The position numbers and the translations under genes were made by a program. Source: an uncultured Verrucomicrobiae bacterium (lineage in GTDB: Bacteria; Verrucomicrobiota; Verrucomicrobiia; Limisphaerales; CAIMTB01). From it: a stretch of 64,000 bases of DNA. Shown in pieces: positions 11,905 through 29,252 of the stretch. Position 1 is the first letter of the stretch; each line of letters begins with the position of its first letter. The notes under the pieces were generated by a model. The model was given only the letters and a program-made list of their open reading frames with translations. It did no database searches and was not told the DNA's origin. The stretch covers positions 41,053-105,052 of the forward strand of contig CAWJDJ010000019.1 in assembly GCA_963841495.1 (NCBI GenBank). The letters are read 5' to 3'.

Positions 11905-11924
11905 CCCTGGCATTCCAATCCAAA

Positions 11925-12437: not shown

Positions 12438-12698
12438 CACGAGCATCCAAAGGCGCTCTTGCGCGACGCGCCGATTCGACATCGGTCTCTTCCGGTGATC
12501 CGAACAGGCATAGGGGAGGTTGGACGGTCGCCCAGGTAACAATGGCTTCTGTCCTTTTGATCGGGGGCACCATTGCCGATCCCGATCGCAGACCCTGGCG
12601 CCGGTCGCGGCGATGCAGGATTCACCCGCAAGGATCGCCTTTCTGCCGAGGCCATGTTGCAGAGTCCTCCAACAGCCGTCCGGGCTTCTGGGATCCCC

Positions 12699-13481: not shown

Positions 13482-13560
13482 CCTGGTTTCGCACTGGCGC
13501 CAGCCGAATCCGGATGAACCGAGTTCAAGCCTGATGGACGATTTCCGCCGAGGCACGGGC

Positions 13561-14397
13561 ATGTCGGAAAAGAATCTTCAGAAAGCGCTGATGCATCTCT
13601 ACGCGAACGTCGATCGATACAGTTCGTATTCCGAGGGCATCTTCGAAGAATTCGCGCTTTCTCCTTCTGAGAAGGATTCGCTCAAGCAGTTGATGACGTC
13701 GCAGCGAAGCGGATTGCTCCTCTTCAATGAGCAGTTGCATGGCAAACGGCGACGTCTCCTCCGGGATGTCCTGCCCTTGTCCGCGGAGCTGCTCGGCCCT
13801 AGACTCGAATCCCTGCTGGATGACTATCTGTCCTTCGAATCCGCCGAAGGCGCCCGCAATCCTGACGATACGATCCGATCCTTTGCGCAATACGCCGGCG
13901 CCCGGCTTGACACGGGCCCCGTTTCGCGGGAATTCGAGTTGATTCGATTCGAAGCCGTGCATGCCTCTGTATCGCTTCCGCTTCCTGCCACGACATTCAA
14001 GGCACGGGCCCCTCTTCCACTCTCCCCGGACCTGCGCTTGTCGCTCGCCGGCGACACGGCATTGATCGCATGTTCGTATGATGTTTTGGCGGCAATCAGG
14101 GTTCCTTCCCTGTTGCCGACACTCGATCGCCTTCCAAAACCGTTCTGGCTCTTCTTGTTCCAGGCAGCCCCGCCCGCCGCCGTGCGAACCCTGGAAGTCA
14201 CCGCCGGGTTGGCGGGACTTTTAAGCTTGTTTTGGAAGGGCCTGTCGCTTGCGGATGCCCTGCAGACTTTCGCATCCGCCACTCAGAGATCCGCCGCACT
14301 GGGCGCGGTTGAACGGCTCCTCCTGGCTGGGGTCCCCTTCCATTCATCCAGCCAGGGATCGCCTTCGGCATCCGGTGAATTCCAGGATCACTCATAG
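13561..14397 (+). CDS. DUF2063-like putative partner protein of the MNIO enzyme
   Basis: About 278 aa directly abutting and overlapping the DUF692 gene. The layout (helical N-domain, LPLSAELLGPRLESLLDDYL, C-terminal GLSLADAL segment) resembles DUF2063/HvfC-type partners. Assigned by context and weak motif resemblance only. Confidence 0.4.
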   Translation: MSEKNLQKALMHLYANVDRYSSYSEGIFEEFALSPSEKDSLKQLMTSQRSGLLLFNEQLHGKRRRLLRDVLPLSAELLGPRLESLLDDYLSFESAEGARNPDDTIRSFAQYAGARLDTGPVSREFELIRFEAVHASVSLPLPATTFKARAPLPLSPDLRLSLAGDTALIACSYDVLAAIRVPSLLPTLDRLPKPFWLFLFQAAPPAAVRTLEVTAGLAGLLSLFWKGLSLADALQTFASATQRSAALGAVERLLLAGVPFHSSSQGSPSASGEFQDHS

Positions 14398-15217
14398 GTT
14401 TGGCCTCCTTTACGACGACAGCTTCCGCGATGCCCTTCGCGGCGGTCGCGCCGGGTTGGATCTTCTCGAGATCATTCCGGACCGTTTCGCAGATGTTCAA
14501 AGCCCCGATCAGGTGCCGGAATGCCTGACCGCCATTCCGACGTTGTTCCATTGCCTGAACCTGTCTCTCGGCTCGGATGAACCCCTGGATCGATCCTACC
14601 TCCAACGTGTCTCCAGCCTCGCAAGGGTGCTCAAACCGCTTTGGACAAGCGACCACCTCGCAGTGACCCGGATCGACGGCGTCCAACTGGGACAATTGTC
14701 ACCGGTCAGGTTCACCGCCCCAGCCCTCGGCAGAATCTCCGCCAAGATCGACCAGGTGCAGAACGAATTGCGGATGCCATTCCTGGTCGAGAATATCGCC
14801 TATTATTTCACCATTCCAGGGGCCGATCTTTCCGAAAATGAATTGCTGCAAAACCTCGTCGAGAAGACCGGCTGCGGAGTGCTGCTCGACATTAACAATG
14901 TCGCCGTGAACGCAGCCAATCACGGCTTTGATCCTTACACTTATCTGCGCGAATTCCCACTGCACGCCGTTCGCGAGATTCATATCGCCGGCCATCGACG
15001 GCGTGGAAATGCCTGCATTGACAGCCATGGCGAGCCGGTGGACGACATCGTGTGGGACCTCCTGCAGTTTGTCTCGGCGCGGCTGGAATCCCTGAATGTC
15101 ATTCTGGAACGCGACCAGGACATTCCGCCACTTGAGGAACTCCTGCGCGAACTCGCAACGGCAAGGGACCGGGTGACCGCAGCCAGGGCCGGCCGACCGC
15201 CCGGTGTCCAGGCCTGA
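14375..15217 (+). CDS. DUF692 / multinuclear non-heme iron oxidase (MNIO, MbnB/TglH-like)
   Basis: TIM-barrel DUF692 signature blocks: LDLLEIIPDRF, FHCLNLSLGS, WTSDHLAV, PFLVENIAYY, GVLLDINNVAVNAANHGFDPYTYL, EIHIAGH and VILERDQDIPPLEEL. In-frame GTG at 14375; the ORF is open from 14249. Confidence 0.85.
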   Translation: MNSRITHRFGLLYDDSFRDALRGGRAGLDLLEIIPDRFADVQSPDQVPECLTAIPTLFHCLNLSLGSDEPLDRSYLQRVSSLARVLKPLWTSDHLAVTRIDGVQLGQLSPVRFTAPALGRISAKIDQVQNELRMPFLVENIAYYFTIPGADLSENELLQNLVEKTGCGVLLDINNVAVNAANHGFDPYTYLREFPLHAVREIHIAGHRRRGNACIDSHGEPVDDIVWDLLQFVSARLESLNVILERDQDIPPLEELLRELATARDRVTAARAGRPPGVQA

Positions 15218-16283
15218 TGCCGCCGCCGATCCCATGGAACCCAACCTGATGGATCCGTCGACGATTCGACCCGCCGCTCATGCGGTTCCCTGGCGCGGAT
15301 CACAGCTCCGGCATCCTTCGATGCCGTGCTGCCACGAGTTGACACACCTCGACATTCTGGAATTGGACGAAGCCCTGCGACATGTCACGTCGCATCGTTT
15401 CGACCCTGCAAGGCTCCGCAGGGAGCATTTTCCGCTCGGACGACTCGGTGACACCCTTCAGGCCATCGCCCGACAACTGGAGGTCGACACCGGTTTCTCA
15501 CTTATCCGGGGCATACCGGTTGAGCGTTACAGCCTGCACGACGCAAGCGTTCTCCTCTGCGGAATAGCCGCCCACTTCGGGCGGTTGATGCCGCAAAATA
15601 TCAAGGGCGAGATCATCAATCACGTTCGGAATTCCGGCTTGGCCGGACCTCTGACCCGGCAGCAGCGCGGATACCAAGGCGGGTCGCCCCTGCCCTTCCA
15701 CAGCGATTCGTGCGATATTGTCGGCCTGCTCTGCATCAGCGACGCAAAATCAGGCGGAGTAAGTTCCATCGCAAGTTCCTACGCAATACACGACGAAATG
15801 CTGAAGCAACGCCCCGCTTTGCTTCAGGCGCTCCATCAAAATTTTCACATCGATCGGCACGGAGAAAACCCGCCCGGAGCCCCCCCCTTCTATTCGACAC
15901 CTGTTTTCATGTGGCACGACGACCGCCTCTTTAGCCGATTCAATCCTGGCTATGTGTACTCGGCGCAGCGGTACGCCGAAACACCGCGACTGACACCGCT
16001 GCAGGACGATGCCATTGCGGAGCTCAGTCGGCTCTGCGCATCGGAGGAATTCAGATTTGAGATGCACCTGCGGCCGGGGGACCTGCAACTGCTCAACAAC
16101 AACGTCATTCTCCACTCCCGTTCCGCGTACGAGGACGACCGTGAATCCGGCAGGAGGAGGCATCTTCTCCGGGTCTGGCTCTTTACGGCTGCGATCAATG
16201 ACATACCGCCGCCGATGCGCGACAGGTACCGGGATATGGAAGCCTGGCAATCCAGGGCGCATCTGCCTCCACCGCCCGACTAG
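15204..16283 (+). CDS. TauD/TfdA-family Fe(II)/2-oxoglutarate-dependent oxygenase
   Basis: HxD facial-triad context PLPFHSDSCDIVGLLCI, distal His in NNNVILHSRSAYED, then RRHLLRVW. Alternative start ATG 15234. Confidence 0.8.
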   Translation: MSRPDAAADPMEPNLMDPSTIRPAAHAVPWRGSQLRHPSMPCCHELTHLDILELDEALRHVTSHRFDPARLRREHFPLGRLGDTLQAIARQLEVDTGFSLIRGIPVERYSLHDASVLLCGIAAHFGRLMPQNIKGEIINHVRNSGLAGPLTRQQRGYQGGSPLPFHSDSCDIVGLLCISDAKSGGVSSIASSYAIHDEMLKQRPALLQALHQNFHIDRHGENPPGAPPFYSTPVFMWHDDRLFSRFNPGYVYSAQRYAETPRLTPLQDDAIAELSRLCASEEFRFEMHLRPGDLQLLNNNVILHSRSAYEDDRESGRRRHLLRVWLFTAAINDIPPPMRDRYRDMEAWQSRAHLPPPPD

Positions 16284-16367
16284 AGGTCCTTGTCCACCCA
16301 TCGTCCCGCCTGCCCTTCTGCTCGGATCACAATCAGGCACAAGTGATGCCGCGCCCCGGCTATTGGA

Positions 16368-17315
16368 ATGCGATTGACACTGGAACAAGCCGTCGCCAAC
16401 GCCCGGCATGCCGGCTCCGCGCGCCGATTTCCCGCGAAAAATGATCCGCGAGTTCGGAACGGCATGGTGTTCTCCCAGGTCCTCCCCCGCTTTCTCCTCG
16501 CAAGAGGAACATCCGTCTTCACGCTCGGCTCATGCTTTGCGCGGAATCTTGAGGAGAAACTGGAGCATTTTTCCCTCCCGACCAGGACCTTTACAGCTCC
16601 AGAAGGCGAGCGGCCCGGGCGGCCGAATGGAATTCTCAATGAATACAATCCCGGCACCATTTGCCAGCGGGTCGAACATGCCCTGAAGGGAATCTCCTTC
16701 GGCGACCTGTGCATCGCCCCGGAGGGCGGAGGTTTCATCGACCTGCTGCTCCCGGAATATGTGACTCCCGCGACCAGGGAACGGCTGATGGCACGGCGGG
16801 CCGAGGTCGACAATATCTACAGGAGCGTGTCCGCTTGCGAGGCCGTCATCGTCACTCTCGACCTGGTGGAGGCGTGGTATGACAAGTCCGCCGGTCTCTA
16901 CCTCAATCGCGTTCCTCCAGCGGCGTTTCTTCTCGCGGATCGCGACCGGTTTGAAATGCACATCCTGGATGTCCAGGAGACCCTGGATCTCCTCGACCGC
17001 ATGGTCAACGCCTTCCGTGCGCTGGGCGTCACGAAGATCCTGTTGACCGTGTCACCGGTCCCCCTGGAGACGACTTACTCCGGCAAAGACTGCCTGACCG
17101 CCAATATTCAATCCAAGTCGGTTCTGATCGTAAGCTCGCACACGCTCTGCCAACGTCACCAGGAGGTCGACTATTTTCCCGGCTACGAAATTGTGACGTC
17201 CGCCGGCCCCGAATCCTTTCATTCCGACTCCATTCACGTCCTCGATGACGTGGTGGAGAAAGTGACCGACTTTTTGGTCGAGCAATACGCCAGGTCGCCG
17301 TCGGTCCCGCCGTGA
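16368..17315 (+). CDS. GSCFA-domain protein (SGNH-hydrolase-like, function unknown)
   Basis: Contains the eponymous motif FTLGSCFARNLEEKL near the N-terminus. 315 aa. Confidence 0.7.
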   Translation: MRLTLEQAVANARHAGSARRFPAKNDPRVRNGMVFSQVLPRFLLARGTSVFTLGSCFARNLEEKLEHFSLPTRTFTAPEGERPGRPNGILNEYNPGTICQRVEHALKGISFGDLCIAPEGGGFIDLLLPEYVTPATRERLMARRAEVDNIYRSVSACEAVIVTLDLVEAWYDKSAGLYLNRVPPAAFLLADRDRFEMHILDVQETLDLLDRMVNAFRALGVTKILLTVSPVPLETTYSGKDCLTANIQSKSVLIVSSHTLCQRHQEVDYFPGYEIVTSAGPESFHSDSIHVLDDVVEKVTDFLVEQYARSPSVPP

Positions 17316-17317
17316 CC

Positions 17318-17590
17318 TCATGACCGGACGGGTGGGCAGCCACCGTGCCTCGAAAGATACGCCGCGATGCCTGGAATCGAAGTCAGCATCTCGAACTCGG
17401 ATTCGTACCGGATCCGGACCCGGAGCGATTCCTCAACCGCGAGAATGACGCTCAACTGACCCAGGCTGTCCCAAACTGCGAGCTCATACATCCGTGTTTC
17501 GGGCCCGATGCCGTCCACGTTGACTGCAAGGGCCCCGGCCACCAGGGTCCGCGCCGCACTTACACTCCCGGGCAAAGGGTCTACCCGCAT
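17318..17590 (-). CDS. Acyl/peptidyl carrier protein (phosphopantetheine attachment site)
   Basis: 90 aa with LAVWDSLGQLSVILAVEE (DSL Ser attachment motif). Overlaps the stop of the upstream adenylating enzyme by 10 nt. Confidence 0.6.
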   Translation of the reverse strand: MRVDPLPGSVSAARTLVAGALAVNVDGIGPETRMYELAVWDSLGQLSVILAVEESLRVRIRYESEFEMLTSIPGIAAYLSRHGGCPPVRS

Positions 17591-19029
17591 GAGCCGAATT
17601 TCTCCTGTATTGCGCGCCGGTCCAGCTTTCCGTTCACCGTCCGGGGATGACGCGGCACAAACCGAATCTCGGCGGGAAGGCTGGACCGCGGCAGGTACCT
17701 GGAGAGTTCGCCCATCGTCTCCGAAATGCGGTCCGGGCTCCCCTCGGCTGCCAGGATCACGGCGTTCCCGACCACCATCGCAACCGGGTTCGCCAATCCC
17801 GATCTCCCCGCCGCCGCCTCGATTTCCCCAAGCTCGATGCGGTTGCCGTGAATCTTCACCATCCCGTCCGTCCGGTGGGAAAAGTACAGGTGGGTCCCAA
17901 CGACCCGAAAGTAGTCTCCTGTATCGAAGGCGGGCATTTCCCTTCCAAAGAGGTCAACCGACGCGAATTTCGGCGAAGGCGCGCCGGCGTAACCGGCCGC
18001 GATGTTGTTCGACAAAATGACCATTCTCAACCCGTCCTCCTCGGGCAGCAGGACAAAATGCCACGAGGGTATTGGCTGGCCGACGGGAATCGTGCTTCCG
18101 GTGACGGTTGGATCCCCCCGGACGTATTCAAAATAGGAACAGAAAAGTGTCGCTTCCGTCGGCCCATAGGTATTGATGATCCGCGCCCCGGGGTAACGTT
18201 CAGCGAGCCCGTCCGCGTCGGCCCTCATCAGCGGCTCGCCACAAAACGTGAAAAGTCTGCAGGCCGACACGGTCTCTTCCTCGCCGGGTTCCCGCAGGAA
18301 GTACGGAATCATGGATGGAACGGAGTGCCAGTGCGTAATCCGCCCGCGAATCACGGCCATCGCCGGGCGTATCCTGTCCATCATTCTGGTAAGAGAGATC
18401 AGCGTGCCGGAACCGCACACCACCGACAAAAAATCAACCAGCGAAAGATCAAAGCCAATGCTGGAGAACTGCGCCCATCGACATCCTTCATGAATCCCGT
18501 AAAACGGAATTGCCCAATCGATGAACGGGATCGTTCGATCCTGAGGCACCTGAACCAGCTTCGGCGTGCCCGTGCTGCCAGAAGTTGCGATGTAATAGCT
18601 GGCCGAATTCCTCCTTTCACCTCCACCGGCCGGAACCTCGTCGGTCGAGAGTCCGATCTTGAGACAGTGCGCCGTCCTCTCCCGCAGGCAGGCGAATGCC
18701 TCGTCCGTGTCGCACAGGATCAACGCCTTGCTGAGCTGCGCCGCCACATCCAGGACGCGCTGGACAGGATTCTCCGAATCGAGCGGACAGAAATCCAGGC
18801 GGTTCAGAAACGAACACGCGAGAAACACATAGTACAGCGCGGACTTTTGGAGGTAGGCGACCAGCGGCCGATCCGCGTGTTCCCCCAGGTCCCTCAACAG
18901 GCCTGCCGAACCGCGCAGGACCTCTGCCCCCGTCAGTTGCCACCGGCCGCACCCGGACTCGACCACCGTCCGCCCGCCATAGGTCTCAAGTGCATTCCGG
19001 ATTCTCCACGAAAGCGGACGAAAGCTCAT
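17581..19029 (-). CDS. Stand-alone adenylation (AMP-binding) enzyme, DltA/amino-acid-adenylation-like
   Basis: Core motifs YYIATSGSTGTPKLV, NTYGPTEATL, FDTGDYF, GRTDGMVKIHGNRIELGEIE and PRTVNGKLDRRAI. Start taken at MSFRPLSW; the ORF is open to 19266 but would then overlap the upstream gene. Confidence 0.85.
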   Translation of the reverse strand: MSFRPLSWRIRNALETYGGRTVVESGCGRWQLTGAEVLRGSAGLLRDLGEHADRPLVAYLQKSALYYVFLACSFLNRLDFCPLDSENPVQRVLDVAAQLSKALILCDTDEAFACLRERTAHCLKIGLSTDEVPAGGGERRNSASYYIATSGSTGTPKLVQVPQDRTIPFIDWAIPFYGIHEGCRWAQFSSIGFDLSLVDFLSVVCGSGTLISLTRMMDRIRPAMAVIRGRITHWHSVPSMIPYFLREPGEEETVSACRLFTFCGEPLMRADADGLAERYPGARIINTYGPTEATLFCSYFEYVRGDPTVTGSTIPVGQPIPSWHFVLLPEEDGLRMVILSNNIAAGYAGAPSPKFASVDLFGREMPAFDTGDYFRVVGTHLYFSHRTDGMVKIHGNRIELGEIEAAAGRSGLANPVAMVVGNAVILAAEGSPDRISETMGELSRYLPRSSLPAEIRFVPRHPRTVNGKLDRRAIQEKFGSCG

Positions 19030-19069
19030 TGGCGGCGCGGGGAGCCACGATCGCGACAGGAATTCATTG

Positions 19070-20884
19070 TCACGCTGCTGTCGGGTGTCGCTCAAGGTGT
19101 GACACGAAGAACCGTTCGACTGCGCATTGCGACCGAAGCCAGGATTGCGGATTTCGGAATATGTGACCTTCATCCTCGAATACATGAAGATCCACCGGGG
19201 TGGTGGGAGGCAGAAGACCGCGTAGGCGGGTAACCTGTCCGACCGGAACAACCTCGTCGCGCCCACCGCGAAGGATCAGCAGGGGGACCGTCACATCCGC
19301 TGCCGCCTTTTCCAAAGGCGCGATCAACGGATCGTCAAGGAGATGACGTCGCACCGGCGCCGTCACCGGGATGGATGCTTCAAACAGAGGCGCCACGAAT
19401 GCGCACGCTGCGAATTCTGTGCCTCGTCCAAGAACCTGCAGTGCCGGCACGGCGGCCAGGCTGCCGGCCAGAATCCCCAGGGTCCGGCACCCTTCGGCAC
19501 GCAGAGAGGACGCCAGATCCTGAATGGCGGAACGCAACTGCACGAAATGCGATCCGATCGGTTCCCGTCGCACTCGTCCCCGCCCAATGGCGCCGGGTCC
19601 GTTCAATGTCACCACGCTGTAGCCATCCAGGGCGAGGGCGCGCGCGATGGAGTAGAGAAGGTGGTGGAAGAAGAACGACTGAGCCCCTGCGACGAACTGC
19701 TGGTGCAATCGCGGCAGAAGCAGAATTCCGGCCCCCCGATTTTGCGGGCCGGGCAGTCTCAAATAGTCGTATTCAACGCCGCCCCTCGCGACAAAGCCAC
19801 ACCGGCACCTTTCTTGATCCCCGGTCACAAGGATTTCATCGGGCATCGAAACGCGCCGAATCCATCGGCCGTTATCCCCGCAAAGCACCTCAAGCTGGCC
19901 ATCGTGCCGCCAGCGGGGCATCTGATAGACGCCGGGCACGGGCGGGAGGAACCGCCACTCCGTTCCGTTTTTCTGTCCGATCACAAGCTGCCGTTCGAAC
20001 CCGCCCTCGGGGCTCCGTGTATCCGATGCTATGATGGCAAGTCGATCGCCGCCCGGATCAATCGAAAAGTCGAACACTTCCAATCCATCCGGGGACACCG
20101 GCCTTGCGGGCGCGTCCGGGGCAAGCGCCCAGACCCGGGTGCACGCTCCGTTCTCGTACGCGGCCAAAACCTCCCCGCAGCCCAACACGACAGCCTTCAT
20201 TCCCGGTCCGCCATTAAATCCGAAAGCGACCTGTTGATCCATCACGGTTCGGTTCTCAAATGTCGATAGATCGAACCGCACGATTCGCACGCGCCCGCGA
20301 TTGTCGGCGGCCATCGACCCAAGCACGACCGCCAGGTAATTTCCGCGCATCGACAGTTCCACCGCAAGAGGTTCACCAGTTTGCGGAAAGGAGCCCAACT
20401 GTCGGGCGCTTCGTCCATCGTGCAAATGGATGCACAACCCGCTTTCTCCATGACAGCCGTAGGCGGCAACCTCGGCGATCGCCGCGCATTCGACAGCCTC
20501 CACCATGGTCTCGACGCGATCGCCGACCCTCGCCTCCAGACGCCTCCCCGCAAGGCACCACAGGCGCCCGCGTTCATCGTACGCGAGGCCCTGGACGTTC
20601 CCGGCCATCGACGAAAGACGAAGAGCCCCGCTCTCGTCGCGGATCATCAACGTCGAATCGTGTGCAAAAGCCAAAAGGCGGCCACAGGCGCTCCACGCGA
20701 TCCGAATCAATCCCAGGTTACTGAACCTGAAGACTTCGGTGCACCGATCCCGATCCTCCAGCACAATGGAAACACCGGCATCCGTCCCCCCCGCGTGGGG
20801 CCTCACGATCGCGAAGGCGCTGGCGGCGTCCGCTGGGGACGGTTCAACCGCAAGATAATACGGCAGGACATCAGCGGGTTTCAC
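19070..20884 (-). CDS. Beta-propeller + alpha/beta-hydrolase protein (S9 prolyl-oligopeptidase/acylaminoacyl-peptidase-like)
   Basis: The N-terminal ~330 aa are repetitive and beta-rich. The C-terminal hydrolase fold has a relaxed nucleophile elbow LGILAGSLAA, an acid in RGGRDEVVPV and a His in FEDEGHIF. Confidence 0.55.
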   Translation of the reverse strand: MKPADVLPYYLAVEPSPADAASAFAIVRPHAGGTDAGVSIVLEDRDRCTEVFRFSNLGLIRIAWSACGRLLAFAHDSTLMIRDESGALRLSSMAGNVQGLAYDERGRLWCLAGRRLEARVGDRVETMVEAVECAAIAEVAAYGCHGESGLCIHLHDGRSARQLGSFPQTGEPLAVELSMRGNYLAVVLGSMAADNRGRVRIVRFDLSTFENRTVMDQQVAFGFNGGPGMKAVVLGCGEVLAAYENGACTRVWALAPDAPARPVSPDGLEVFDFSIDPGGDRLAIIASDTRSPEGGFERQLVIGQKNGTEWRFLPPVPGVYQMPRWRHDGQLEVLCGDNGRWIRRVSMPDEILVTGDQERCRCGFVARGGVEYDYLRLPGPQNRGAGILLLPRLHQQFVAGAQSFFFHHLLYSIARALALDGYSVVTLNGPGAIGRGRVRREPIGSHFVQLRSAIQDLASSLRAEGCRTLGILAGSLAAVPALQVLGRGTEFAACAFVAPLFEASIPVTAPVRRHLLDDPLIAPLEKAAADVTVPLLILRGGRDEVVPVGQVTRLRGLLPPTTPVDLHVFEDEGHIFRNPQSWLRSQCAVERFFVSHLERHPTAA

Positions 20885-20905
20885 AGCGGGATTCCAACCG
20901 TGTCT

Positions 20906-22633
20906 TCAACAACGATACGAGAACTCCGTCATGCTTTGCGGCCGCAATCGTGACCGATCCAATTTCCCGGCAGCCGTCCTGGGCAATGTCCGGGTGAATT
21001 CAAGGACTGCCAGACGCTTGTACTCCTGCATCGGCCACCGGTTCTCGACCACGGATGCCAGTTCCCCGGCGAGCTCCGGACCCGCTGCGGCCCCTGGATC
21101 AACGACAACGAAAGCCTTCAGCGCCGTCAGTCCCTGCTCGTCGGGTGCCCCTATGATGGCGCACTCCCGGACGCAGGGATGCTGAAGAAGCGCCAGTTCG
21201 AGCTCGGTGGGATTGACCCAATCGCCGCAACCGAGTTTCACCAGGTGATCCGAACGTCCGTGAATATGGTAATAGCCGTCCAGGTCGAAGCTGAACAGGT
21301 CACTCGTCACAAACCACCCGTCTCGAAAGGATTGTCCGGTCCGCCCGGGATCTTTCCAGTAACCTGTGATAATCATGGGGCCGCGCACTCGCAGCTTTCC
21401 GATCTCGCCCGGCTGCACGGGCCTTTCCCCTTCGTCGATCACCTCGATTTCCACTCCCTCCACAGGCCTGCCCACAGAGCCGCGCCTCGTCTCTCCCGGG
21501 CGGTTCGTAATGTAGAGAAAGCCGACTTCGGTATTTCCGTAGGAATCCAGCAATTCCACCCGGGAAAACCGCGTCCACCGATCCAACAGGGCGTCTGCGA
21601 GCGGTTCTCCGCCAGTCACCGCCAATCGAAGCGACTGGAGTTTGTTCGAAAGCTCGGGACGCGACACCGTATCCGCCAGAAATCGGGGCTGGGCAAACAG
21701 CAAACTGCAACGGTGGGCGTCGATAACTTCGGCGAGCGTCGCGCTCCCAGGCGACTCCGGAACCAGCGCGCACGCCGCGCCTTCAACAAACGGCATCAAA
21801 ATCGAGCAGCCCAACCCGTATCCTGTCGTCATTTTGGCCACGGAAATGACGCGATCGGCCGCGTTCAGTCCCAGGACCGGCAGCGCAAATCCAAAATACC
21901 CGTGCAGAATGTCCTGATGGCGGTGCACAATCAGCTTCGGTCGCCCCGTGCTTCCCGAGCTCAGGAGACCGTACGCCTGGCCATTGGGATTCCCGGAAAC
22001 AACATAGTCCGGTCCGCTCCGCGCCATGATTGCGGTGCTGAACTCCGAAGGCGTGGTCCAACCCAGTCCGGCCCCAACGACTCCGAGCATCCCGGGCAAA
22101 GACCGAAGTCCCGGCAAGCGTCCCGGCAACCGATCATAGGCGATCGTGAGGCGCGCGTCGCACTGTTGAGCCATGAAGAACGCATCCTCGGCCGGCAGCG
22201 CGGGATCCATGAGGATCGCGACCGCGCCGGCACCTGTGACGCCGAAATAGGCCGCCACGAGCGTGGCGCAATCGGGCATCGACAAGATAACCCGGTCACC
22301 AGGAACGATGCCCATCGAGCGCAGCCAGGCCGTGCAACGGCCCGCCATTTCACCGACCTGCTCATAGCTGTAGGTCTGCCGCTCGAAGTAGAGCGCGGGT
22401 TGCGACCCACGACCCTCACGGCAATGACGATGCAGCATCAATTCCGCGTGATTTACCGTGTCCGGAGATGACCCCACACGGCTGCAAAGGGCGACTACCG
22501 CGGCCGCTGCGGGGGTCTCATCGCGAAAGGACATAACGCTTCTCCGGCAGGTCGCCCATTCCCCGTCATGGGGCCAGGAACTGTAATCGGACCCATCGCG
22601 AGGTGGAAGCCCGGATTTGCCTGATCGATTCAT
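20906..22633 (-). CDS. Aryl/acyl-CoA ligase (AMP-binding superfamily, benzoate-CoA-ligase-like)
   Basis: Motifs LLSSGSTGRPKLIVHRH, TGYGLGCS, DSYGNTEVG, WFVTSDLF, GRSDHLVKLGCGDWVNPTELE and LPRTAAGKLDR. ATG at 22633 lies 4 nt after the stop of the upstream OMT gene. Confidence 0.85.
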   Translation of the reverse strand: MNRSGKSGLPPRDGSDYSSWPHDGEWATCRRSVMSFRDETPAAAAVVALCSRVGSSPDTVNHAELMLHRHCREGRGSQPALYFERQTYSYEQVGEMAGRCTAWLRSMGIVPGDRVILSMPDCATLVAAYFGVTGAGAVAILMDPALPAEDAFFMAQQCDARLTIAYDRLPGRLPGLRSLPGMLGVVGAGLGWTTPSEFSTAIMARSGPDYVVSGNPNGQAYGLLSSGSTGRPKLIVHRHQDILHGYFGFALPVLGLNAADRVISVAKMTTGYGLGCSILMPFVEGAACALVPESPGSATLAEVIDAHRCSLLFAQPRFLADTVSRPELSNKLQSLRLAVTGGEPLADALLDRWTRFSRVELLDSYGNTEVGFLYITNRPGETRRGSVGRPVEGVEIEVIDEGERPVQPGEIGKLRVRGPMIITGYWKDPGRTGQSFRDGWFVTSDLFSFDLDGYYHIHGRSDHLVKLGCGDWVNPTELELALLQHPCVRECAIIGAPDEQGLTALKAFVVVDPGAAAGPELAGELASVVENRWPMQEYKRLAVLEFTRTLPRTAAGKLDRSRLRPQSMTEFSYRC

Positions 22634-22637
22634 GGTG

Positions 22638-23816
22638 TCACTCGATGAAAGGAGTGCGCCGGGAGAGAGGCCAACCGGCGACCCTCGGCGTCGAATTCGC
22701 CCCACACGTCTCGTCGGTCTGAGGTTGTGTCTCGTTGGAGCCCGTCTGCGCCATCGAATCGGCTTGTAACTCCATGACGTTGATCGCCGTTTCAGTCCGC
22801 ACAAGCCGCGCGAGAGCGAGTCCCGCCTTTTGAAAGAGGCGCTCGTACTCCAGGAGAGTCCGCTCACGCCCGGTCGTCATCACCAGCATATTCAAATCGG
22901 TCATGTGGATATCCGAGAGAAGATCGTCGCGAACGGATGTCGCGCCGGGAAGGGATTCCGGTACCGCCCGCTCAATGACGAGGACCCGACGGTGCGGTGT
23001 CAAAACGGTTCGACAATTGCCAAGAATCCTGCACGCGCGCTCGTCGTCCCAGTCGTGGAGAACGCGTGAGAGTATGTAGGCATCACCGCCCACAGGGACC
23101 TCAGCCAGGGCATCGCCGCAGGTGAACACGCACCGGGATTGCAGGCCGGCCTCTTCGATCCGCTGCTTCGCCCTCTGGGCGACGTCCGGGAGATCGTACA
23201 CAACACCCTGGGCCTCGGGATTGGCCTGCAAAATGCCGATCAGCAAACTCCCATTCCCTCCGCCCACGTCGACGATTCTCTTCAATTCCGAGAACGAGTA
23301 GCTCTTGAGCAGGTTCTCGATATAGGTGCGCGTGAAGCCGGCCATCGCGGCATCAAAGAGGTTTGCATACTCGGGTTGTGCCGCGCGGTACTGCCAGAGA
23401 TCCATGCGATAGCGATGCTCAAACGCGCTCTCGCCGGTGCGGATGCTGTGCATCACATCGCTCCACGCATCCTGGTGCACCTTTCCAAGCATCAACAAGG
23501 CCCAATCGTGGAGCGAGCCCGCCTGGTTCCTGCGAAGGGTCGCACCCAATGGCGTGAGCGAAAATCGCTGCTGTTCGTCCCCGGCAAGAATTCCCTCCGC
23601 GGCAAGCGCCCTCAGCACTCGATAAAGCGGTTGCGTCCGCGTTCCGGTTGCCTGGGCAAGCTCCTCACTACCCTTGGGTCCATCAGACAACAGATCCGGA
23701 ATATCAAGGCTGACGAAGACATGGATGGCCCTTGATAACCAGGAAGCCTCGATCAACCGCACCATAAGCGCGGATGCCTGGCGGCTCGAATCCTCCGGTT
23801 TGCCAGACACAGTCAT
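22638..23816 (-). CDS. SAM-dependent O-methyltransferase (Methyltransf_2 type with N-terminal dimerisation/winged-helix domain)
   Basis: VDVGGGNGSLLIGIL (SAM motif I), VVYDLPDV, LSRVLHDWDDE, and an N-terminal wHTH-like ELAQATGTRTQPLYRVLRALA. Confidence 0.85.
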   Translation of the reverse strand: MTVSGKPEDSSRQASALMVRLIEASWLSRAIHVFVSLDIPDLLSDGPKGSEELAQATGTRTQPLYRVLRALAAEGILAGDEQQRFSLTPLGATLRRNQAGSLHDWALLMLGKVHQDAWSDVMHSIRTGESAFEHRYRMDLWQYRAAQPEYANLFDAAMAGFTRTYIENLLKSYSFSELKRIVDVGGGNGSLLIGILQANPEAQGVVYDLPDVAQRAKQRIEEAGLQSRCVFTCGDALAEVPVGGDAYILSRVLHDWDDERACRILGNCRTVLTPHRRVLVIERAVPESLPGATSVRDDLLSDIHMTDLNMLVMTTGRERTLLEYERLFQKAGLALARLVRTETAINVMELQADSMAQTGSNETQPQTDETCGANSTPRVAGWPLSRRTPFIE

Positions 23817-23859
23817 TCTCTTGTCGCATTCCTCCGACCCGGGTGCGCCTGAATTGGAC

Positions 23860-25602
23860 TCAAGGAGGGCCCGCCGCGAGTTCTGGAATAGGAACCTGAA
23901 TTCGATTGGACACTCCAGCCTGGGGTCTCATGGGAACCTTTGTATCGACGTAAAATCCCTCCATGACGAGCACGTCGATCGAGGAGCGAAGATAGGTGAC
24001 CAGCGCGTCATAGGGAGACTCAACAATCGGATCGCCGGCCAGGTTGAACGAGGTGTTCAGCAACATCGGAAATCCGGTCCGGATTTCGAATGCCCGCAAC
24101 AGCGCGCGCACGAACGGTTCCTTCCCGTCAGGGACGGCTTGAACCCGCGACGATCCATCAACGTGGACGATGGCCGGGAGAGCCGACCGAAACTGGGGAC
24201 GCAGGCGGGTTGCCAGCAGCATGTACGGTGAAGACTGCTCCAATTCAAAGTACTTCACCTGCGCCTCCTCCGTCACCACGGGAGCGAAGGGCCGAAATGG
24301 CTCACGACCCTTCAGCCGGTTCAGCCGATCTTTCATCCCGGCGTCACGCGGATCCGCCAGAATGCTTCTGTGGCAGAGCGCGCGGGGCCCGGTCTCCGAC
24401 CGGCCACGCAACAAACCGATGATCCTGCCTTCGGCAAGATCCGCCGCCATGCGCTCCGCAAGTTCCGGGTTGCCTAGACGCCTCGCCTGGAGTCCGAAAT
24501 AGTCCAGCCATTCCTCGATAACCGTGTCCCCGTAACTTGGCCCCAGAAATGGCAGGGTATCCGCGCCGCGTCGGAGTCGTCTGAAGGCCTGATGGAACGT
24601 ATAAAAGGCCGCTCCAATGCAAAGGCCGTCGTCGCCGGCCGCCGGAACAACATGAATCCTCTGAAATCGTGTGTCCGCCAGGATCCGGCCGTTCAACTGG
24701 CAATTCAGAAAGACGCCTCCGGCTCCACAAAGTGCCCGATGCGATCCGGCAGGATTGAGGGCGTTGAGAAGGGCAATCATGTACTCTTCGAGGAGGTGCT
24801 GTCCGGTTGCCGCAATGTCCGCTGCCCTCCCCCGGGCGAATCTATGCCAGGGCTCGCCCGAATTCTGCCATGTTCGATCGACATCCGTCAGACCCGTCTC
24901 GAACGTCAGGAAAAACTGCAGGTCCTCAATCGCGGGAATCCGTGTTTCAAGAAGCGACTTCCCGTAGGCCGCCAATCCCATGGTCTTGCCTCCCTCGCGC
25001 TCGCCAAACCCGCTGAGATACGTGAATTGCTCGTACTTGTGGCCAAGGCTGATCTGCTTCTTTCTGTCCACCTCCGTCATGTAAGGCAGCAGGAACGAAT
25101 TCCGTCGCGTCATTCTCGCAAGGCCGAAGTCCTGCAGCCTTCGGTCGATGAGTTCGATGCCATCGCCCGAGCCCACATAGACGCTCTCCGCCTCGACACG
25201 ATGCCCGATGATGTCACCCGACCCGTCCGCCACAACAATCATGGCGGCGTCCAAATCCGACGTGCAGTAGGTGGACCAGGCGTGGCAATCATGGTGGCCG
25301 ACTCCCAGAACCTCGAGCTGGGGAGCGGCAAGAGCATCCCGCAACTCGTCCCGCAGAAGATGAATCACCCGGTCAATTTCGACATTGGTGTAGCTGATCC
25401 CGGCAATGGCCAGGTCCCCGGCGCGGATTCCCGCAGTATCAAGGACAGCCTTGATCGACTTCAATGGCAGTTCCGGTGAATTGGAATGCTTGCGGCGATC
25501 CAACCGTTCCTCGGCGATTTGAGCGATGAGTTGCCCATCGCTCACCAGCGCGGCCCCCCGATCATGTCCTAAATGCACCCCTAAGGAATGTTGTCTCGGC
25601 AT
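23860..25602 (-). CDS. NodU/CmcH-family carbamoyltransferase
   Basis: 580 aa. GHDRGAALVSDGQLIAQIAEERLDRRKH at the N-terminus and C-terminal NTSFNLAGDPIVESP are typical of carbamoyltransferases. Confidence 0.9.
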   Translation of the reverse strand: MPRQHSLGVHLGHDRGAALVSDGQLIAQIAEERLDRRKHSNSPELPLKSIKAVLDTAGIRAGDLAIAGISYTNVEIDRVIHLLRDELRDALAAPQLEVLGVGHHDCHAWSTYCTSDLDAAMIVVADGSGDIIGHRVEAESVYVGSGDGIELIDRRLQDFGLARMTRRNSFLLPYMTEVDRKKQISLGHKYEQFTYLSGFGEREGGKTMGLAAYGKSLLETRIPAIEDLQFFLTFETGLTDVDRTWQNSGEPWHRFARGRAADIAATGQHLLEEYMIALLNALNPAGSHRALCGAGGVFLNCQLNGRILADTRFQRIHVVPAAGDDGLCIGAAFYTFHQAFRRLRRGADTLPFLGPSYGDTVIEEWLDYFGLQARRLGNPELAERMAADLAEGRIIGLLRGRSETGPRALCHRSILADPRDAGMKDRLNRLKGREPFRPFAPVVTEEAQVKYFELEQSSPYMLLATRLRPQFRSALPAIVHVDGSSRVQAVPDGKEPFVRALLRAFEIRTGFPMLLNTSFNLAGDPIVESPYDALVTYLRSSIDVLVMEGFYVDTKVPMRPQAGVSNRIQVPIPELAAGPP

Positions 25603-25680
25603 GTCCGGGAATCGATTGACACTCTGTCCTGTCCAGGCCTCCCTGTGGGTCCTTCTCCAACGCCAGGCTTCCGGACAACT

Positions 25681-26721
25681 TCACATTTGAACGACAATCC
25701 GCTGCGTCTTTCCGGAGGGGCTCGTCTTCAATTCCTCGAAAAGGCCCTCCAGGGGGATGAGCTTGGAAATCAGCGGCTTCAGATTGACGGCCCCGTTCGA
25801 TAGCAGGTCGGCGGCTTGCCTGAAATCCTGGTCGGTATTATTGGCGGAGCCTGTAATCGTGATTTCCTGGTAGTGGATCGCATTCCAGTCAACCTGCAGA
25901 GGCTCGGAAGGGTGCAAGGACGCATACAAAATGATCCGGCCGGTGCGCGCCACCATCCCCAGCGCCTGCTCGCCCGCCTTCCTGAAGCCGGCCGCGACAA
26001 TGACGACGTCCGCTCCGCGTCCCTCGGTGCGGTCCTTGACAAACTCAATGGGATCCGTGGTTCGAGCGTTCACCGTGAAGTCGGCTCCCAGCGTCTGTGC
26101 GAAACCCAGTCGCGCGTCATCGACATCGCTAACGATCGTGCAGGCCCCCTCGAGTTGGGCGAGAAGAAGGTGAATTGTCCCCATCGTCCCGGCTCCCAAA
26201 ACAGCCACCGTGTCTCTGGATGAGATCTGTGCCCGGTGGATGCTGTGCAAGCAACATGCCAAGGGTTCGATCAAACTTGCCTCCTGCAGCTCGACGTGTT
26301 CGGGCAGTTTCACGACATGGTCGATCGGCACGGAAACAAATTCTGCGAAACCTCCGCCCACAATCTTGAAATCGGAATCGGAGCGGGATTTCCCCAGCTC
26401 GAGGCAGATGTTGTTGCTGCCCTTGCCACAATAATAGCAGCGCCCGCACCGTCTCATGACGTCGACGGCGACGCGGTCTCCGGGCCTCACGGCGGATTGG
26501 CGCTGATCCGCCCACTCGACGATGCCGGCAAGCTCGTGGCCCCCGATGACCGGGTAGTGCGGCAGGCCGCCCGAGAACAGCCGACGTTCCATTGTGCAGA
26601 TCGCAACCGCCTTGGACCGGACAAGAACTTCTCCTGGCGCCGGTTCGCAGCACTTGATCCATTGTACCCCGGCAGTCCGCGGGGCCGTTATGACGAAGGC
26701 CCTCATGGTTTTCGCGGCCAT
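25681..26721 (-). CDS. Zinc-dependent medium-chain dehydrogenase/reductase (threonine/sorbitol dehydrogenase-like)
   Basis: GHELAGIVE (catalytic Zn), RCGRCYYCGKGSNNIC (structural Zn) and AVLGAGTMG (Rossmann). Start candidates ATG 26721 or 26706; the ORF is open to 26787. Confidence 0.85.
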   Translation of the reverse strand: MAAKTMRAFVITAPRTAGVQWIKCCEPAPGEVLVRSKAVAICTMERRLFSGGLPHYPVIGGHELAGIVEWADQRQSAVRPGDRVAVDVMRRCGRCYYCGKGSNNICLELGKSRSDSDFKIVGGGFAEFVSVPIDHVVKLPEHVELQEASLIEPLACCLHSIHRAQISSRDTVAVLGAGTMGTIHLLLAQLEGACTIVSDVDDARLGFAQTLGADFTVNARTTDPIEFVKDRTEGRGADVVIVAAGFRKAGEQALGMVARTGRIILYASLHPSEPLQVDWNAIHYQEITITGSANNTDQDFRQAADLLSNGAVNLKPLISKLIPLEGLFEELKTSPSGKTQRIVVQM

Positions 26722-27049: not shown

Positions 27050-27221
27050 AAGCCGTAAACATGCAGTTGGGAGGGAAATGATTGCGCCGCAGATTTCCGG
27101 GCAAGACGAGGAGTGAGCGAGGCGCGTATCGGAACGGAGATACGTAACGAGCGAACGACGAAGCTCTTGCCCGGAAAGATCCAGCAAGCACGACCGATCC
27201 AACTGCATGGTTACGGCTAAG
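27047..27221. other. Long three-tier hairpin (~170 nt) overlapping the stop codon of the 27217..28803 gene
   Basis: Outer stem ctaagccgtaaacatgcagttgg / ccaactgcatggttacggctaag (21 of 23 bp paired). Middle stem gatttccgggcaaga / tcttgcccggaaagatc. Inner stem cgtatc / gatacg. Confidence 0.6.
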
Positions 27222-28803
27222 TCTTCCTCAGCAATAAGAGCGCCCAATCCAGCCAGCCGGGAGAAGGCGGCGACTTCCAGGCCGGTCCTTCGACCGGCGG
27301 CAGGGGAATGACCTCACCTGTGAAGGCGTTAAACCAACGGGCCTCATAGGATCCCGGAGTAAGCTGGAGTGTCACGGTGCCCGCATCGGGCAAATACACG
27401 GCATAAATCTCCCCGGGCTTGGCCAGGCAATAAGCGCCGGAACTGACCAACTCGTCATGGGGCTCGGTCTTCCACCAGTCGAAACTGGTGAAGAATTCCA
27501 CCAGGTGTTCGTAACCCTTGAGCATGACCATCGTATCGTCCCCCCGCCCATTGATCCATCCTCCCCCGAGGTCCGGCCAGATGTTCACACCGCGGCGGGC
27601 CGTTTCTCCGGCCGTGCCGTAGGCGCCCGCCATGGCGATCTCCCAGGCCATGTGTCGCAACGTCTCCGCGGAGTCACCGTCGGGCCCGGGCGCCCAGTGC
27701 GGGTAATGATCCTCGTATCCGTACTCCTCGTTCGTCTGCGGAATGATCCGGCCTGTCCTTATCTGGATCTGACGTTCCTCCAGCATCAGCGCGTGCTGGT
27801 TTCTCGACCAGTCCTGGATGGAGGTGAACCCGAACCACGGCGAGGCCCGATCCTGGTGCTCCCGGTGCACCGGATGGGATGTGGCCAGGTGGTGATAGGG
27901 ATCCCAGCCAACGAGAAGGGTGCCCATCTCGTGGGTCCAGGCTTCGTCACGGAAGCTGTCCAGATCGTCACCCAGGTCCCAGGTGACGTTGGAGAAGGCT
28001 GAGAGACGGGCCGCCGCGTATCGGAAATAGCGCCGCTCATCATCGCTCCCGGCCGTCGCCTGGGCGCCGTGGGTCGAGATGTCCAGGATCACCGAAATAA
28101 TCATGTCACGCTCGCGGGCGTACCGCAGCATGCGCTCCCATTTTTGCCAGTAGGAGACGTCGAACCGCGAGTAGTCGATTTCCGGACGATCGAAGCTCCC
28201 GGGCCGCGCCGCAATCCATGGACGCAGGAACACGCTGAAATTGTCGCCCGTCATCACCGGTTCGCCCCAAAGAATGTTCGCCGCCCCGGCAAGCAGGACG
28301 CGAATGCGGTTGATCCGGAGCCGCCCCAGCCGCTCGATCGCTTCATGGATGACTCGATCCTCCTTCCACCCCATCAACCAGAAGGCGGTCGTCCCGTTAA
28401 AGAAATAGTGCTCGTCCGTGCCTTCCCACACGAAATGCCACGGATATTGCCGGTCAACCCGAAGCGATCCGCGTCGATGGGCGTCCGTGGCCGTGAACGT
28501 TCCCCGGTGGGCCGCCACGAAATCCCCCTGCCGATAGGTCACCTCGTAGGAGTACTCGCCGGGGGCGGCGGGCATGAATCGGATGCGAAACGTGCCGCCG
28601 TCGACCGCATCGCAAAAGCCCGTGACCGGCACCCGGTTTGCCCCAGGGCGCCTCGCGAACCAGCCGTCCACCGCGACGTCGGTAAATGGGTTGCCGGCAT
28701 CCGGCCGGCTGACGTCCAGTTTGACTTCAAGAAAGTCGTAGGCCTCGACCAACGGGCTGGACTGCGAGAAGTGAATTTCGGCCGGGTTGGCATGCCCCGC
28801 CAT
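27217..28803 (-). CDS. DUF5060 + DUF4038 protein (glycoside-hydrolase-like)
   Basis: AYDFLEVKLDVSRPDAGNPFTDVAVDGWF...VTGFCDAVDGGTFRIRFMPAAPGEYSYEV (DUF5060 pattern), followed by a TIM-barrel-like region. The start is uncertain. ATG 28803 gives no signal peptide. The ORF is open to 29190 but runs through repeat M2. Confidence 0.7.
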   Translation of the reverse strand: MAGHANPAEIHFSQSSPLVEAYDFLEVKLDVSRPDAGNPFTDVAVDGWFARRPGANRVPVTGFCDAVDGGTFRIRFMPAAPGEYSYEVTYRQGDFVAAHRGTFTATDAHRRGSLRVDRQYPWHFVWEGTDEHYFFNGTTAFWLMGWKEDRVIHEAIERLGRLRINRIRVLLAGAANILWGEPVMTGDNFSVFLRPWIAARPGSFDRPEIDYSRFDVSYWQKWERMLRYARERDMIISVILDISTHGAQATAGSDDERRYFRYAAARLSAFSNVTWDLGDDLDSFRDEAWTHEMGTLLVGWDPYHHLATSHPVHREHQDRASPWFGFTSIQDWSRNQHALMLEERQIQIRTGRIIPQTNEEYGYEDHYPHWAPGPDGDSAETLRHMAWEIAMAGAYGTAGETARRGVNIWPDLGGGWINGRGDDTMVMLKGYEHLVEFFTSFDWWKTEPHDELVSSGAYCLAKPGEIYAVYLPDAGTVTLQLTPGSYEARWFNAFTGEVIPLPPVEGPAWKSPPSPGWLDWALLLLRKT

Positions 28804-28847
28804 CGATGCGCCCGCCAGCAGAAAAAAGCTGCGGACAATTGGACTTA

Positions 28848-29012
28848 GAGCCCGTCCGAAAAGGAGGAATGGAGCTGCGAGGAGGGATTCTATGCGAGGC
28901 CCGGGCGGCGAGACCGGAGCATCCCCGTCCCGCAGCGCGGGATGACGGTCGAGCCAATCCCGCAGCCGCGGGACCTCGCGCAAAAGACACCTCGCCCGGA
29001 GGGTTTTCCAAT
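28848..29012. repeat. Copy M2 (half element) of the MITE-like repeat family
   Basis: Starts with the terminus agagcccgtccgaaaaggagg and carries the conserved core ggcgagaccggagcatccccg...gacggtcgagccaat...cctcgcgcaaaaga. Confidence 0.65.
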
Positions 29013-29252
29013 CGATCATAAGTGGTTTTCGCAAATCAAGAACCTCGGCGGCTGCCAGGCCGCTGTTCACGGATGCTTGAAGGATCCCGGATGAGCACGC
29101 ACCGCGGACCATGAATCGCCGCCGCGCAGTTTCAATCTTCAACGTGAAGCGCGGGACGAGCCGGCGCCGGACTCCGCGGCGGTGAATCACTCTCCAGTTG
29201 GAGACAGGGTCGATGGCTGGCGTTTGGGCTGCAAATTACCCAAAGTCGCGAC

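Follow-up and report, generated by a model that had tools for sequence, protein, structure and literature searches.

The MNIO (DUF692-family) enzymes BufB and HvfB convert cysteine residues to thiooxazole or to oxazolone/thioamide groups. A pathway for peptides that the ribosome makes and that are modified after translation (RiPPs) that depends on an MNIO enzyme can also draw on a NodU-like carbamoyltransferase, for which the std cluster provides one precedent (PMC13174530). A 2022 review (PMC9487903) still had no activity to assign to the family of GSCFA proteins, which share a Pfam clan with the DltD protein of the Dlt system. In Pseudomonas entomophila, the GSCFA protein PipG is genetically required, together with PipD and PipF, for O-acetylation of a hydroxyl group that is made by the TauD-family enzyme PipE (PMC12828459). 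Here, we describe a locus in which MNIO and GSCFA genes meet a carrier protein and two adenylating enzymes. It lies in a 64,000-nt stretch of DNA from an uncultured Verrucomicrobiae bacterium (GenBank assembly GCA_963841495.1, contig CAWJDJ010000019.1, positions 41,053 to 105,052 of the forward strand), hereafter called the window, to which all positions refer unless another locus is named.

A sequence-only reading of the window had singled out a seven-gene carrier-protein operon on the minus strand (17318–26721). The open reading frame (ORF) listing, Pfam and NCBIfam confirm the seven genes and their domains. All are intact, co-directional and closely packed, and they encode a carrier protein, a nonribosomal peptide synthetase (NRPS)-type adenylation (A) enzyme, an S9-type hydrolase, an aryl-acid CoA-ligase-like enzyme, an O-methyltransferase (OMT), an O-carbamoyltransferase and a medium-chain dehydrogenase/reductase (MDR). 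Convergent to it, a plus-strand operon encodes a precursor peptide, an S26 peptidase, two conserved proteins, the MNIO enzyme, a TauD-family dioxygenase and a GSCFA-family enzyme. We consider it very likely that both operons form one cluster of ~15 kb (11713–26721), of which the seven genes are the tailoring half. The explanation that best covers the whole, and that we hold to be probable, is a single peptide cluster in which the A enzyme, the carrier protein, TauD and GSCFA form an accessory module, with GSCFA off-loading the carrier protein onto the peptide or onto water.

Related loci and two cluster types

Around 13 related loci were found, in Verrucomicrobiota, Acidobacteriota, Alphaproteobacteria and metagenomes. 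The link to the convergent ribosomal-peptide operon, which had been proposed from the window alone, is real: an MNIO operon lies beside every locus with enough flanking sequence. Wherever the flank suffices, the MNIO gene is preceded by two conserved genes of ~270 residues, and where it is long enough, the surroundings also include one or two genes for S26 peptidases, a short ORF and genes for an OMT and, usually, a carbamoyltransferase. Gene order and strand differ between the loci. In a Candidatus Korobacteraceae metagenome-assembled genome (MAG; locus L008), twelve genes share one strand (OMT, ligase, hydrolase, MDR, carbamoyltransferase, precursor, S26 peptidase, both MNIO partners, MNIO, TauD and GSCFA), with the carrier-protein and A genes convergent to them. 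Two short contigs of a Rhodopila MAG join inside the A gene, resulting in the same full gene set. In a further genome (G041), the cluster halves lie at two contig ends, with the precursor gene last on one and the MNIO gene and a probable ATP-grasp gene last on the other; the two halves are likely adjacent.

Homologues of the hydrolase number ~38, at 43–62% identity, and nearly all of them are metagenomic. Scans with patterns from the hydrolase alignment returned three loci in GTDB genomes and three in JGI metagenomes. Among 40 relatives of the bacterium, 13 of which are congeners, only two congeners gave matches to the hydrolase, both marginal and C-terminal (E ~1e-4). Either the hydrolase family is rare or the scan patterns were too strict.

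The related loci fall into two types. All eight type I loci (the window, L005, L006, L007, L008, L027, JGI E8_AjXin and Rhodopila) carry TauD, GSCFA, carrier-protein and A genes. The type II loci, about six in number, are without this set; most have an ATP-grasp (LAL-type) ligase, and many also encode a glycosyltransferase, class I and class II aldolases, an ILVD/EDD-type dehydratase and a BBE oxidase. Common to both types are the ligase–S9 pair, the OMT, the MNIO set and the LSCS core of the precursor. The A, carrier-protein, TauD and GSCFA genes are an accessory module, mutually exclusive with the ATP-grasp ligase. The family-wide set consists of the precursor, the S26 peptidase, MNIO and its two partners, the ligase, the S9 hydrolase, the OMT and usually the carbamoyltransferase. 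This distribution of the module across the types indicates that the two adenylating enzymes belong to different functional units. Reading the seven-gene operon as one functional unit, as had been done before, is not supported; the operon combines four genes of the family-wide set (ligase, S9 hydrolase, OMT and carbamoyltransferase) with module genes (A enzyme and carrier protein, with their partners on the other strand) and a sporadic one (MDR). In a maximum-likelihood tree of the S9 protein, the types interleave with four changes of type, and a single split between them appears in none of 200 bootstrap trees.

Further genes were seen at the edges of these clusters. ILVD_EDD genes or fragments lie there in both types (L004 12430–14109, L007 19894–21122, L006 6872–7105 and the JGI loci K0PI5gz9 and ur9DfjpL). 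These copies, and the aldolases of type II loci, could be biosynthetic or could serve self-resistance; neither ILVD_EDD nor aldolase genes are found near the cluster in the window. Some related clusters include an added radical SAM enzyme (L005 18083–19435), and the ENA contig iLveosH1 has another MNIO cluster a few kb away, in which a B12-radical SAM enzyme is encoded.

The carrier-protein module

The carrier protein (17318–17590, minus strand) is an ACP-like, stand-alone protein of 90 residues. Its PP-binding score of 17.8 bits is slightly below the Pfam cut-off, which several orthologues pass, and the serine of its DSL site, in WDSLGQLS (WDS(L/F)GQLS in the family), is invariant in six orthologues. 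The stand-alone A enzyme (17581–19029, minus strand) is encoded directly upstream, and the end of its gene shares 10 nt with the start of the carrier-protein gene, an overlap that points to translational coupling of the two. It scores 201 bits against AA-adenyl-dom and 157 bits against each of the DltA equivalogs TIGR01734 (cut-off 560) and NF003417 (cut-off 476), in every case below the cut-off. Core motifs A3, A5, A7, A8 and A10 are all retained: the enzyme, though divergent, is complete as an adenylation domain of NRPS type, with competent core motifs next to a carrier serine. Among solved structures, LgrA comes nearest with its second A domain (chain residues 1263–1718), followed by DltA.

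The pocket residues of the A enzyme are kept among orthologues. Mapped by hand on what we take to be the GrsA numbering, they presumably read D-L-V-H-T-C-T-L-F-K. This code is similar to the one in LgrA's second A domain, which we assume to activate Gly, and it matches no code known to us; an FCGE cysteine is presumably held in common with DltA. The pocket Asp and Lys would point to an α-amino acid as substrate and the likeness to the LgrA domain to a small one, a weak and uncertain assignment. In the type I locus L007, the A enzyme (18450–19934) is a distant paralogue, 28% identical to that of the window and with similar pocket residues. The A gene of this locus is followed by a 62-residue ORF where the carrier protein usually stands, and GSCFA lies elsewhere in the cluster. 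A phosphopantetheinyl transferase (PPTase) had been named as something to look for elsewhere in the genome, which turns out to encode both AcpS and an Sfp/HetI-type PPTase; the carrier protein can thus be primed in trans.

Canonical enzymes for joining or releasing a carrier-bound group are missing from the neighborhood. Hidden Markov model searches covered the whole genome, in which the window sits on contig C19. Condensation (a model that also covers Cy domains) and ketoacyl-synt matches occur on contigs C17, C1, C2 and C11 and none on C19; Thioesterase (PF00975) matches occur on C17 and C1 only, the reductase release domain not having been searched separately; and MBOAT (DltB) matches are confined to C21, C11 and C4, again with none on C19. 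The earlier observation that no condensation, ketosynthase or thioesterase domain stands near the operon is therefore borne out by the genome-wide searches. A canonical assembly line of NRPS or polyketide synthase (PKS) type was rejected as a candidate, as the genome's Condensation, ketosynthase and Thioesterase matches are all off this contig.

The enzyme that best fits the vacant role is GSCFA (16368–17315, plus strand; PF08885), an SGNH-fold protein and proposed off-loader of the carrier protein, either as acyltransferase or as thioesterase. Ser55 in block I and Asp287-x-x-His290 in block V are conserved in 31 sequences. The predicted structure (pLDDT 90.8) has as top folds PatB and OatA, both SGNH O-acetyltransferases, and TesA, a thioesterase, and neither a signal peptide nor a membrane anchor is visible in the sequence. 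GSCFA is the only enzyme with a hydrolase or transferase fold that tracks the A enzyme and the carrier protein across loci. TauD (15204–16283, plus strand; PF02668, E = 3e-33), an Fe/2-oxoglutarate dioxygenase whose nearest solved relative is FrbJ, occurs only in loci that also have GSCFA, carrier protein and A enzyme. The sequence-only reading had put forward both the S9 hydrolase and the GSCFA protein as non-canonical catalysts. GSCFA is the better fit, given its perfect co-variation with the A enzyme and carrier protein, its SGNH fold and its intact triad; the S9 hydrolase is not supported in this role. We lean, by a little, towards GSCFA as the off-loader, and the SGNH-fold enzyme and the hydroxylase together probably stand in for the absent condensation domain. 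In Rubrobacter tropicus (CP045119.1; L065 8001–9002), a menaquinone operon includes a GSCFA gene with 46% identity to that of the window, between a MenD-like gene and the gene for a MenH-like hydrolase, a placement that suggests a thioesterase role for this branch.

The peptide operon, the ligase–hydrolase pair and a proposed route

For the precursor peptide (11713–11904, plus strand), six orthologues have in common a leader motif of the LL(D/N)F type and an end in L-(S/A)-C-S before the stop codon. The peptide has 63 residues, with EDLLDFSFTEV in its leader and GSRFGLSCS at its end. The seven precursors read in total end in FGLSCS, VGLSCS, SCLSCS (twice), NCLACS and GCLSCS (twice), so that L-(S/A)-C-S followed by the stop codon is invariant in all of them. 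Their leaders are acidic, and most have an LL(D/N)F(S/D/E)(F/L) motif. A second Cys, three residues before the invariant one, is optional and is lacking in the precursor of the window. In type I loci the precursor gene is adjoined by the gene for an S26 (signal-peptidase-I-type) peptidase, a candidate leader peptidase (11925–12437, plus strand; PF10502, E = 7e-24; sigpep_I_bact, 88.9 bits).

Two MNIO partner genes follow, for which Pfam and NCBIfam searches returned no family. Protein A (12573–13481, plus strand), whose true start is probably ~120 nt further downstream, has orthologues of 49–62% identity in L005–L008, L027 and L034. Protein B (13561–14397, plus strand; orthologues 37–55% identical) has atlas neighbours in DUF2063/NGO1945_C/PqqD clusters (scores 0.91–0.93), which serve as leads only to a probable partner of DUF2063/RRE type. 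The MNIO enzyme itself (14375–15217, plus strand; PF05114, E = 5e-76) scores 231.6 bits against BufB (cut-off 310) and 194.1 bits against HvfB (cut-off 360), both below equivalog level, and its best PDB matches are 3bww and then TglH. As BufB and HvfB, its best matches, modify Cys, the penultimate Cys of the precursor is the likely target. A PF05114 gene, a partner protein and an adjoining short precursor gene are conserved across loci, in keeping with an MNIO-dependent RiPP cluster. The TauD gene overlaps the end of the MNIO gene by 14 nt.

On the opposite strand, the CoA-ligase gene (20906–22534, minus strand) lies directly upstream of the S9 hydrolase gene (19070–20884, minus strand), with a gap of 20–46 nt in all ~13 contexts; the two are an obligate adjacent pair. 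The ligase scores 303 bits against benz_CoA_lig (TIGR02262), under the cut-off of 375, and its nearest solved relatives are the anthranilate-CoA ligase 4wv3 (261 bits), which we take to be AuaEII, and then benzoate-CoA ligases. The AlphaFold2 model of the hydrolase (pLDDT 84, pTM 0.83) consists of an all-β region (residues 1–346) and a C-terminal α/β-hydrolase domain, in which S475 is placed at a strand–helix elbow and D543 and H574 after later strands; these three residues are invariant in 19 homologues. Foldseek matches the model to DPP4, acylaminoacyl peptidase, S9 carboxypeptidases and prolyl endopeptidase. Around the nucleophile the sequence reads A-G-S-L-A in place of G-x-S-x-G, and the Pfam S9 score passes marginally (23.0 bits, cut-off 22.6). 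As modelled, with a β-propeller, an α/β-hydrolase domain and Ser, Asp and His in this order, the enzyme is of the S9 prolyl-oligopeptidase type.

The hydrolase, always beside its ligase, is kept in ~6 loci without an A enzyme, of which one (ur9DfjpL) has a PP-binding gene. This links its conserved function to the ligase, and the earlier suggestion that it partners the carrier protein finds no support in these loci, where the pair persists and the A/GSCFA module does not. Most simply, the hydrolase would trim the peptide.

In the route that we propose, an Sfp-type PPTase would prime the carrier protein in trans, after which the A enzyme would load a small α-amino acid onto it. The cytoplasmic GSCFA enzyme would take the aminoacyl group from the thioester onto its own serine and pass it to a hydroxyl group of a peptide-derived intermediate, possibly one made by TauD, or to water; the transfer step would follow a Dlt-like, PipE/PipG-like logic. 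The S9 enzyme would trim the peptide, and the ligase would activate a carboxylate that arises from trimming or from MNIO chemistry. The product would be a ribosomal peptide with modifications, or else a small molecule that takes shape on the invariant C-terminal L-(S/A)-C-S. That the peptide is the acceptor of the acyl group on the carrier protein we propose only tentatively.

A fuller version of this route is a RiPP–NRPS hybrid without a condensation domain, which we rate as rather unlikely when taken with all its steps. The BufB-like MNIO enzyme would act on the L-S-C-S terminus, where the penultimate Cys would become a heteroaromatic ring. Subsequently, the S9 enzyme would cut off the invariant terminal Ser, and it is a speculative point that this exposes a heteroaryl carboxylate suited to activation by an anthranilate/benzoate-type ligase. 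The carrier-bound amino acid, off-loaded by GSCFA, would then be joined to the peptide-derived intermediate, a step for which the sister clusters would use their ATP-grasp ligase.

Bond formation from the carrier protein may also be unnecessary. The A enzyme could load an amino acid, TauD could hydroxylate it while tethered, and GSCFA, as a thioesterase, could release the hydroxy-amino acid by hydrolysis, to be joined later or used separately. Stand-alone cassettes of an A enzyme, a carrier protein, an oxygenase and a hydrolase are established, as in NovH/NovI, BpsD/OxyD/Bhp and SyrP, which acts on tethered Asp. The strict co-occurrence of A enzyme, carrier protein, TauD and GSCFA accords with such a cassette, as do the match of the GSCFA fold to TesA, the 46%-identical gene in the men operon of Rubrobacter, in which one would expect a thioesterase step, and the fact that FrbJ acts on a small molecule. 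However, the TauD gene overlaps the MNIO gene and always belongs to the precursor/MNIO operon, suggesting a peptide substrate; PipE and PipG set a precedent for hydroxylation followed by GSCFA-dependent O-acylation; and type I loci are without an obvious ligase for the freed amino acid, unless the aryl-CoA-ligase-like enzyme serves. We give the cassette a minor chance. The model with TauD acting on the peptide and GSCFA transferring to it is slightly preferred over tethering and hydrolysis, because TauD is so placed and because type II loci have the ATP-grasp ligase as an alternative.

It is improbable that the S9 hydrolase acts as a surrogate condensation catalyst, a transacylase or macrocyclase whose serine would accept either the aminoacyl group of the carrier protein or the acyl group that the CoA ligase makes and hand it on to the peptide. 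S9 enzymes are known as RiPP transpeptidases and macrocyclases (PCY1, POPB and OphP), the Ser-Asp-His triad is invariant, and the gene, always paired with that of the ligase, stands between both adenylating-enzyme genes in the window. Its presence in ~6 loci without an A enzyme, with a carrier gene in ur9DfjpL only, nevertheless means that its role cannot depend on the A enzyme and carrier protein. Moreover, the core forms the very C-terminus and no follower peptide comes after it, in contrast to the substrates of known S9 macrocyclases, and all fold matches are hydrolytic peptidases.

A further reading takes the seven genes for a separate pathway, one for a small molecule or for the cell envelope (by Dlt-like esterification or by metabolism of aryl acids), which simply adjoins the MNIO operon; it is highly improbable and contradicted by synteny. 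DltA is among the best solved relatives of the A enzyme, the ligase resembles catabolic benzoate-CoA ligases and the operon lies on the opposite strand, but both gene sets stand together in every informative locus, in at least three phyla, with order and strand varied and twelve genes once on one strand, the DltA equivalog score is 157 versus 560 bits, the contig has no MBOAT (DltB), and the hydrolase was missing from 12 of the 13 congeneric genomes searched, two of the 13 giving only marginal C-terminal matches (E ~1e-4). Homologous operons free of MNIO genes and linked to a Dlt or lipid pathway, the finding that the sequence-only reading had said would refute the link, were looked for and seen in no informative locus, and no related locus read had a Dlt, lipid or cell-wall context.

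Several observations weigh against our preferred reading, in which GSCFA off-loads the carrier protein as part of an accessory module of the peptide cluster. The type II locus ur9DfjpL has a PP-binding gene without A enzyme or GSCFA. The backbone of the S9 tree is poorly supported, and its well-supported branches alone force at most one exchange of the module, so that the related loci are not fully independent. Among longer proteins, neither ligase–S9 nor other fusions were found, only ordinary NRPS and PKS proteins, which is weak evidence. Across 35 genomes of the phylum, no canonical GSCFA gene has an A, ACP or TauD gene within 1.5 kb, and GSCFA homologues of 46% identity have a menaquinone operon or nuo genes around them and no carrier proteins; the link to a carrier protein is thus limited to the present GSCFA subfamily and is not general. 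Finally, the SGNH fold suits a thioesterase equally with a transferase.

The OMT (22638–23816, minus strand), of small-molecule type and with Methyltransf_2 and dimerisation domains in Pfam, has CalO6, DtpM, MmcR and AlpH as nearest solved relatives, and its gene is found in nearly all related loci. Its C-terminal tail of ~40 residues (22638–22760) is absent from orthologues, with alignments ending near residue 352 of 392, and the ligase ORF has a long upstream extension by which it is overlapped. The NodU/CmcH-type O-carbamoyltransferase (23860–25602, minus strand; GdmN, NovN and TobZ as nearest solved relatives) is encoded in most related loci. The Zn-dependent MDR dehydrogenase (25681–26721, minus strand; Pfam and NCBIfam) has one orthologue among the loci read, in L008 at 73% identity, and is a sporadic cluster member.

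Start codons were refined from the longest ORFs against orthologues (A enzyme 19029, ligase 22534, MDR 26721). Gaps in the minus-strand operon measure 21–103 nt, and ~495 nt of non-coding sequence lie 5′ of the MDR gene, which has an AAGGA ribosome-binding site. Scans for consensus promoters and terminators scored no higher than on shuffled sequence. The GSCFA and carrier-protein genes converge, with their stop codons 2 nt from each other (17315–17318); terminators cannot fit there, so that transcription of the two operons must produce overlap or collision. Immediately upstream of the operon lies a gene for a DUF5060/apiosidase-like glycoside hydrolase (27217–29190) with a counterpart in none of the related loci, which marks the cluster boundary.

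Comparison with known systems

MNIO enzymes are a fast-growing source of peptide chemistry, and the locus defines a rare family of clusters that spans phyla and in which the four-residue core at the C-terminus is invariant. It offers a testable case of ribosomal and carrier-protein chemistry meeting without a condensation domain, and the type I and type II loci are a natural experiment on what the accessory module contributes. If the hybrid reading were true, this would be the first assigned reaction of a GSCFA-family enzyme on a carrier protein. We know of no description of a carrier protein and an SGNH enzyme paired as a joining device.

The Dlt system (DltA, DltC, DltB and DltD) resembles the module in having a stand-alone A enzyme translationally coupled to a small carrier protein and a protein of the SGNH superfamily; ester formation without a condensation domain, as in Dlt, is what the module would also carry out. 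The GSCFA protein described here belongs to the SGNH clan and has a conserved Ser/Asp/His triad, but its Pfam family is not that of DltD. Furthermore, there is no MBOAT on the contig, the A enzyme is far below the DltA cut-offs, GSCFA has no visible signal peptide or anchor, and the context is a ribosomal-peptide cluster instead of the cell envelope. The NovH/NovI, BpsD/OxyD/Bhp and SyrP systems likewise have an A enzyme, a carrier, an oxygenase and a hydrolase without a condensation domain. Here, in contrast, the oxygenase is of TauD type and encoded in a peptide operon, the hydrolase is an SGNH enzyme and not an α/β-hydrolase thioesterase, and no downstream NRPS follows.

In the detoxin/rimosamide-like PipE/PipDFG system, a TauD-family hydroxylase gene also stands beside a GSCFA-family gene (PMC12828459). 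The likeness is at family level; PipD and PipF are needed there, an acetyl group is put on an NRPS/PKS product, and there is no dedicated A enzyme or carrier protein. Non-ribosomal units are combined with ribosomal peptides, or C-terminal scaffolds used, in several RiPP hybrids and scaffold-peptide systems: pheganomycin (ATP-grasp), goadvionin (ACP and GNAT), pearlins and fosfazinomycin (PMC13622209). Here the ATP-grasp ligase is the alternative module of type II relatives, and no PEARL, GNAT or asparagine-synthetase-like enzyme is present.

The BufB/HvfB pathways (bufferins and Hvf; PMC11626156) share with the locus a Cys-containing precursor and an MNIO enzyme with a probable DUF2063-like partner. 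They differ in that the MNIO enzyme described here is under both equivalog cut-offs, the precursor is cytoplasmic in type with its core at the extreme C-terminus, and there are two partners. Compared with bufferins, Hvf and std, the locus has in addition an ANL ligase, an S9 peptidase, an OMT and the A/ACP/SGNH genes, and full-text literature searches returned no described MNIO cluster with this combination, nor any pathway that pairs the ligase–S9 pair, OMT and carbamoyltransferase with an ATP-grasp ligase as type II loci do. The locus would function like several known systems and is a member of none of them: it is a variant of the MNIO RiPP cluster with an unprecedented accessory module.

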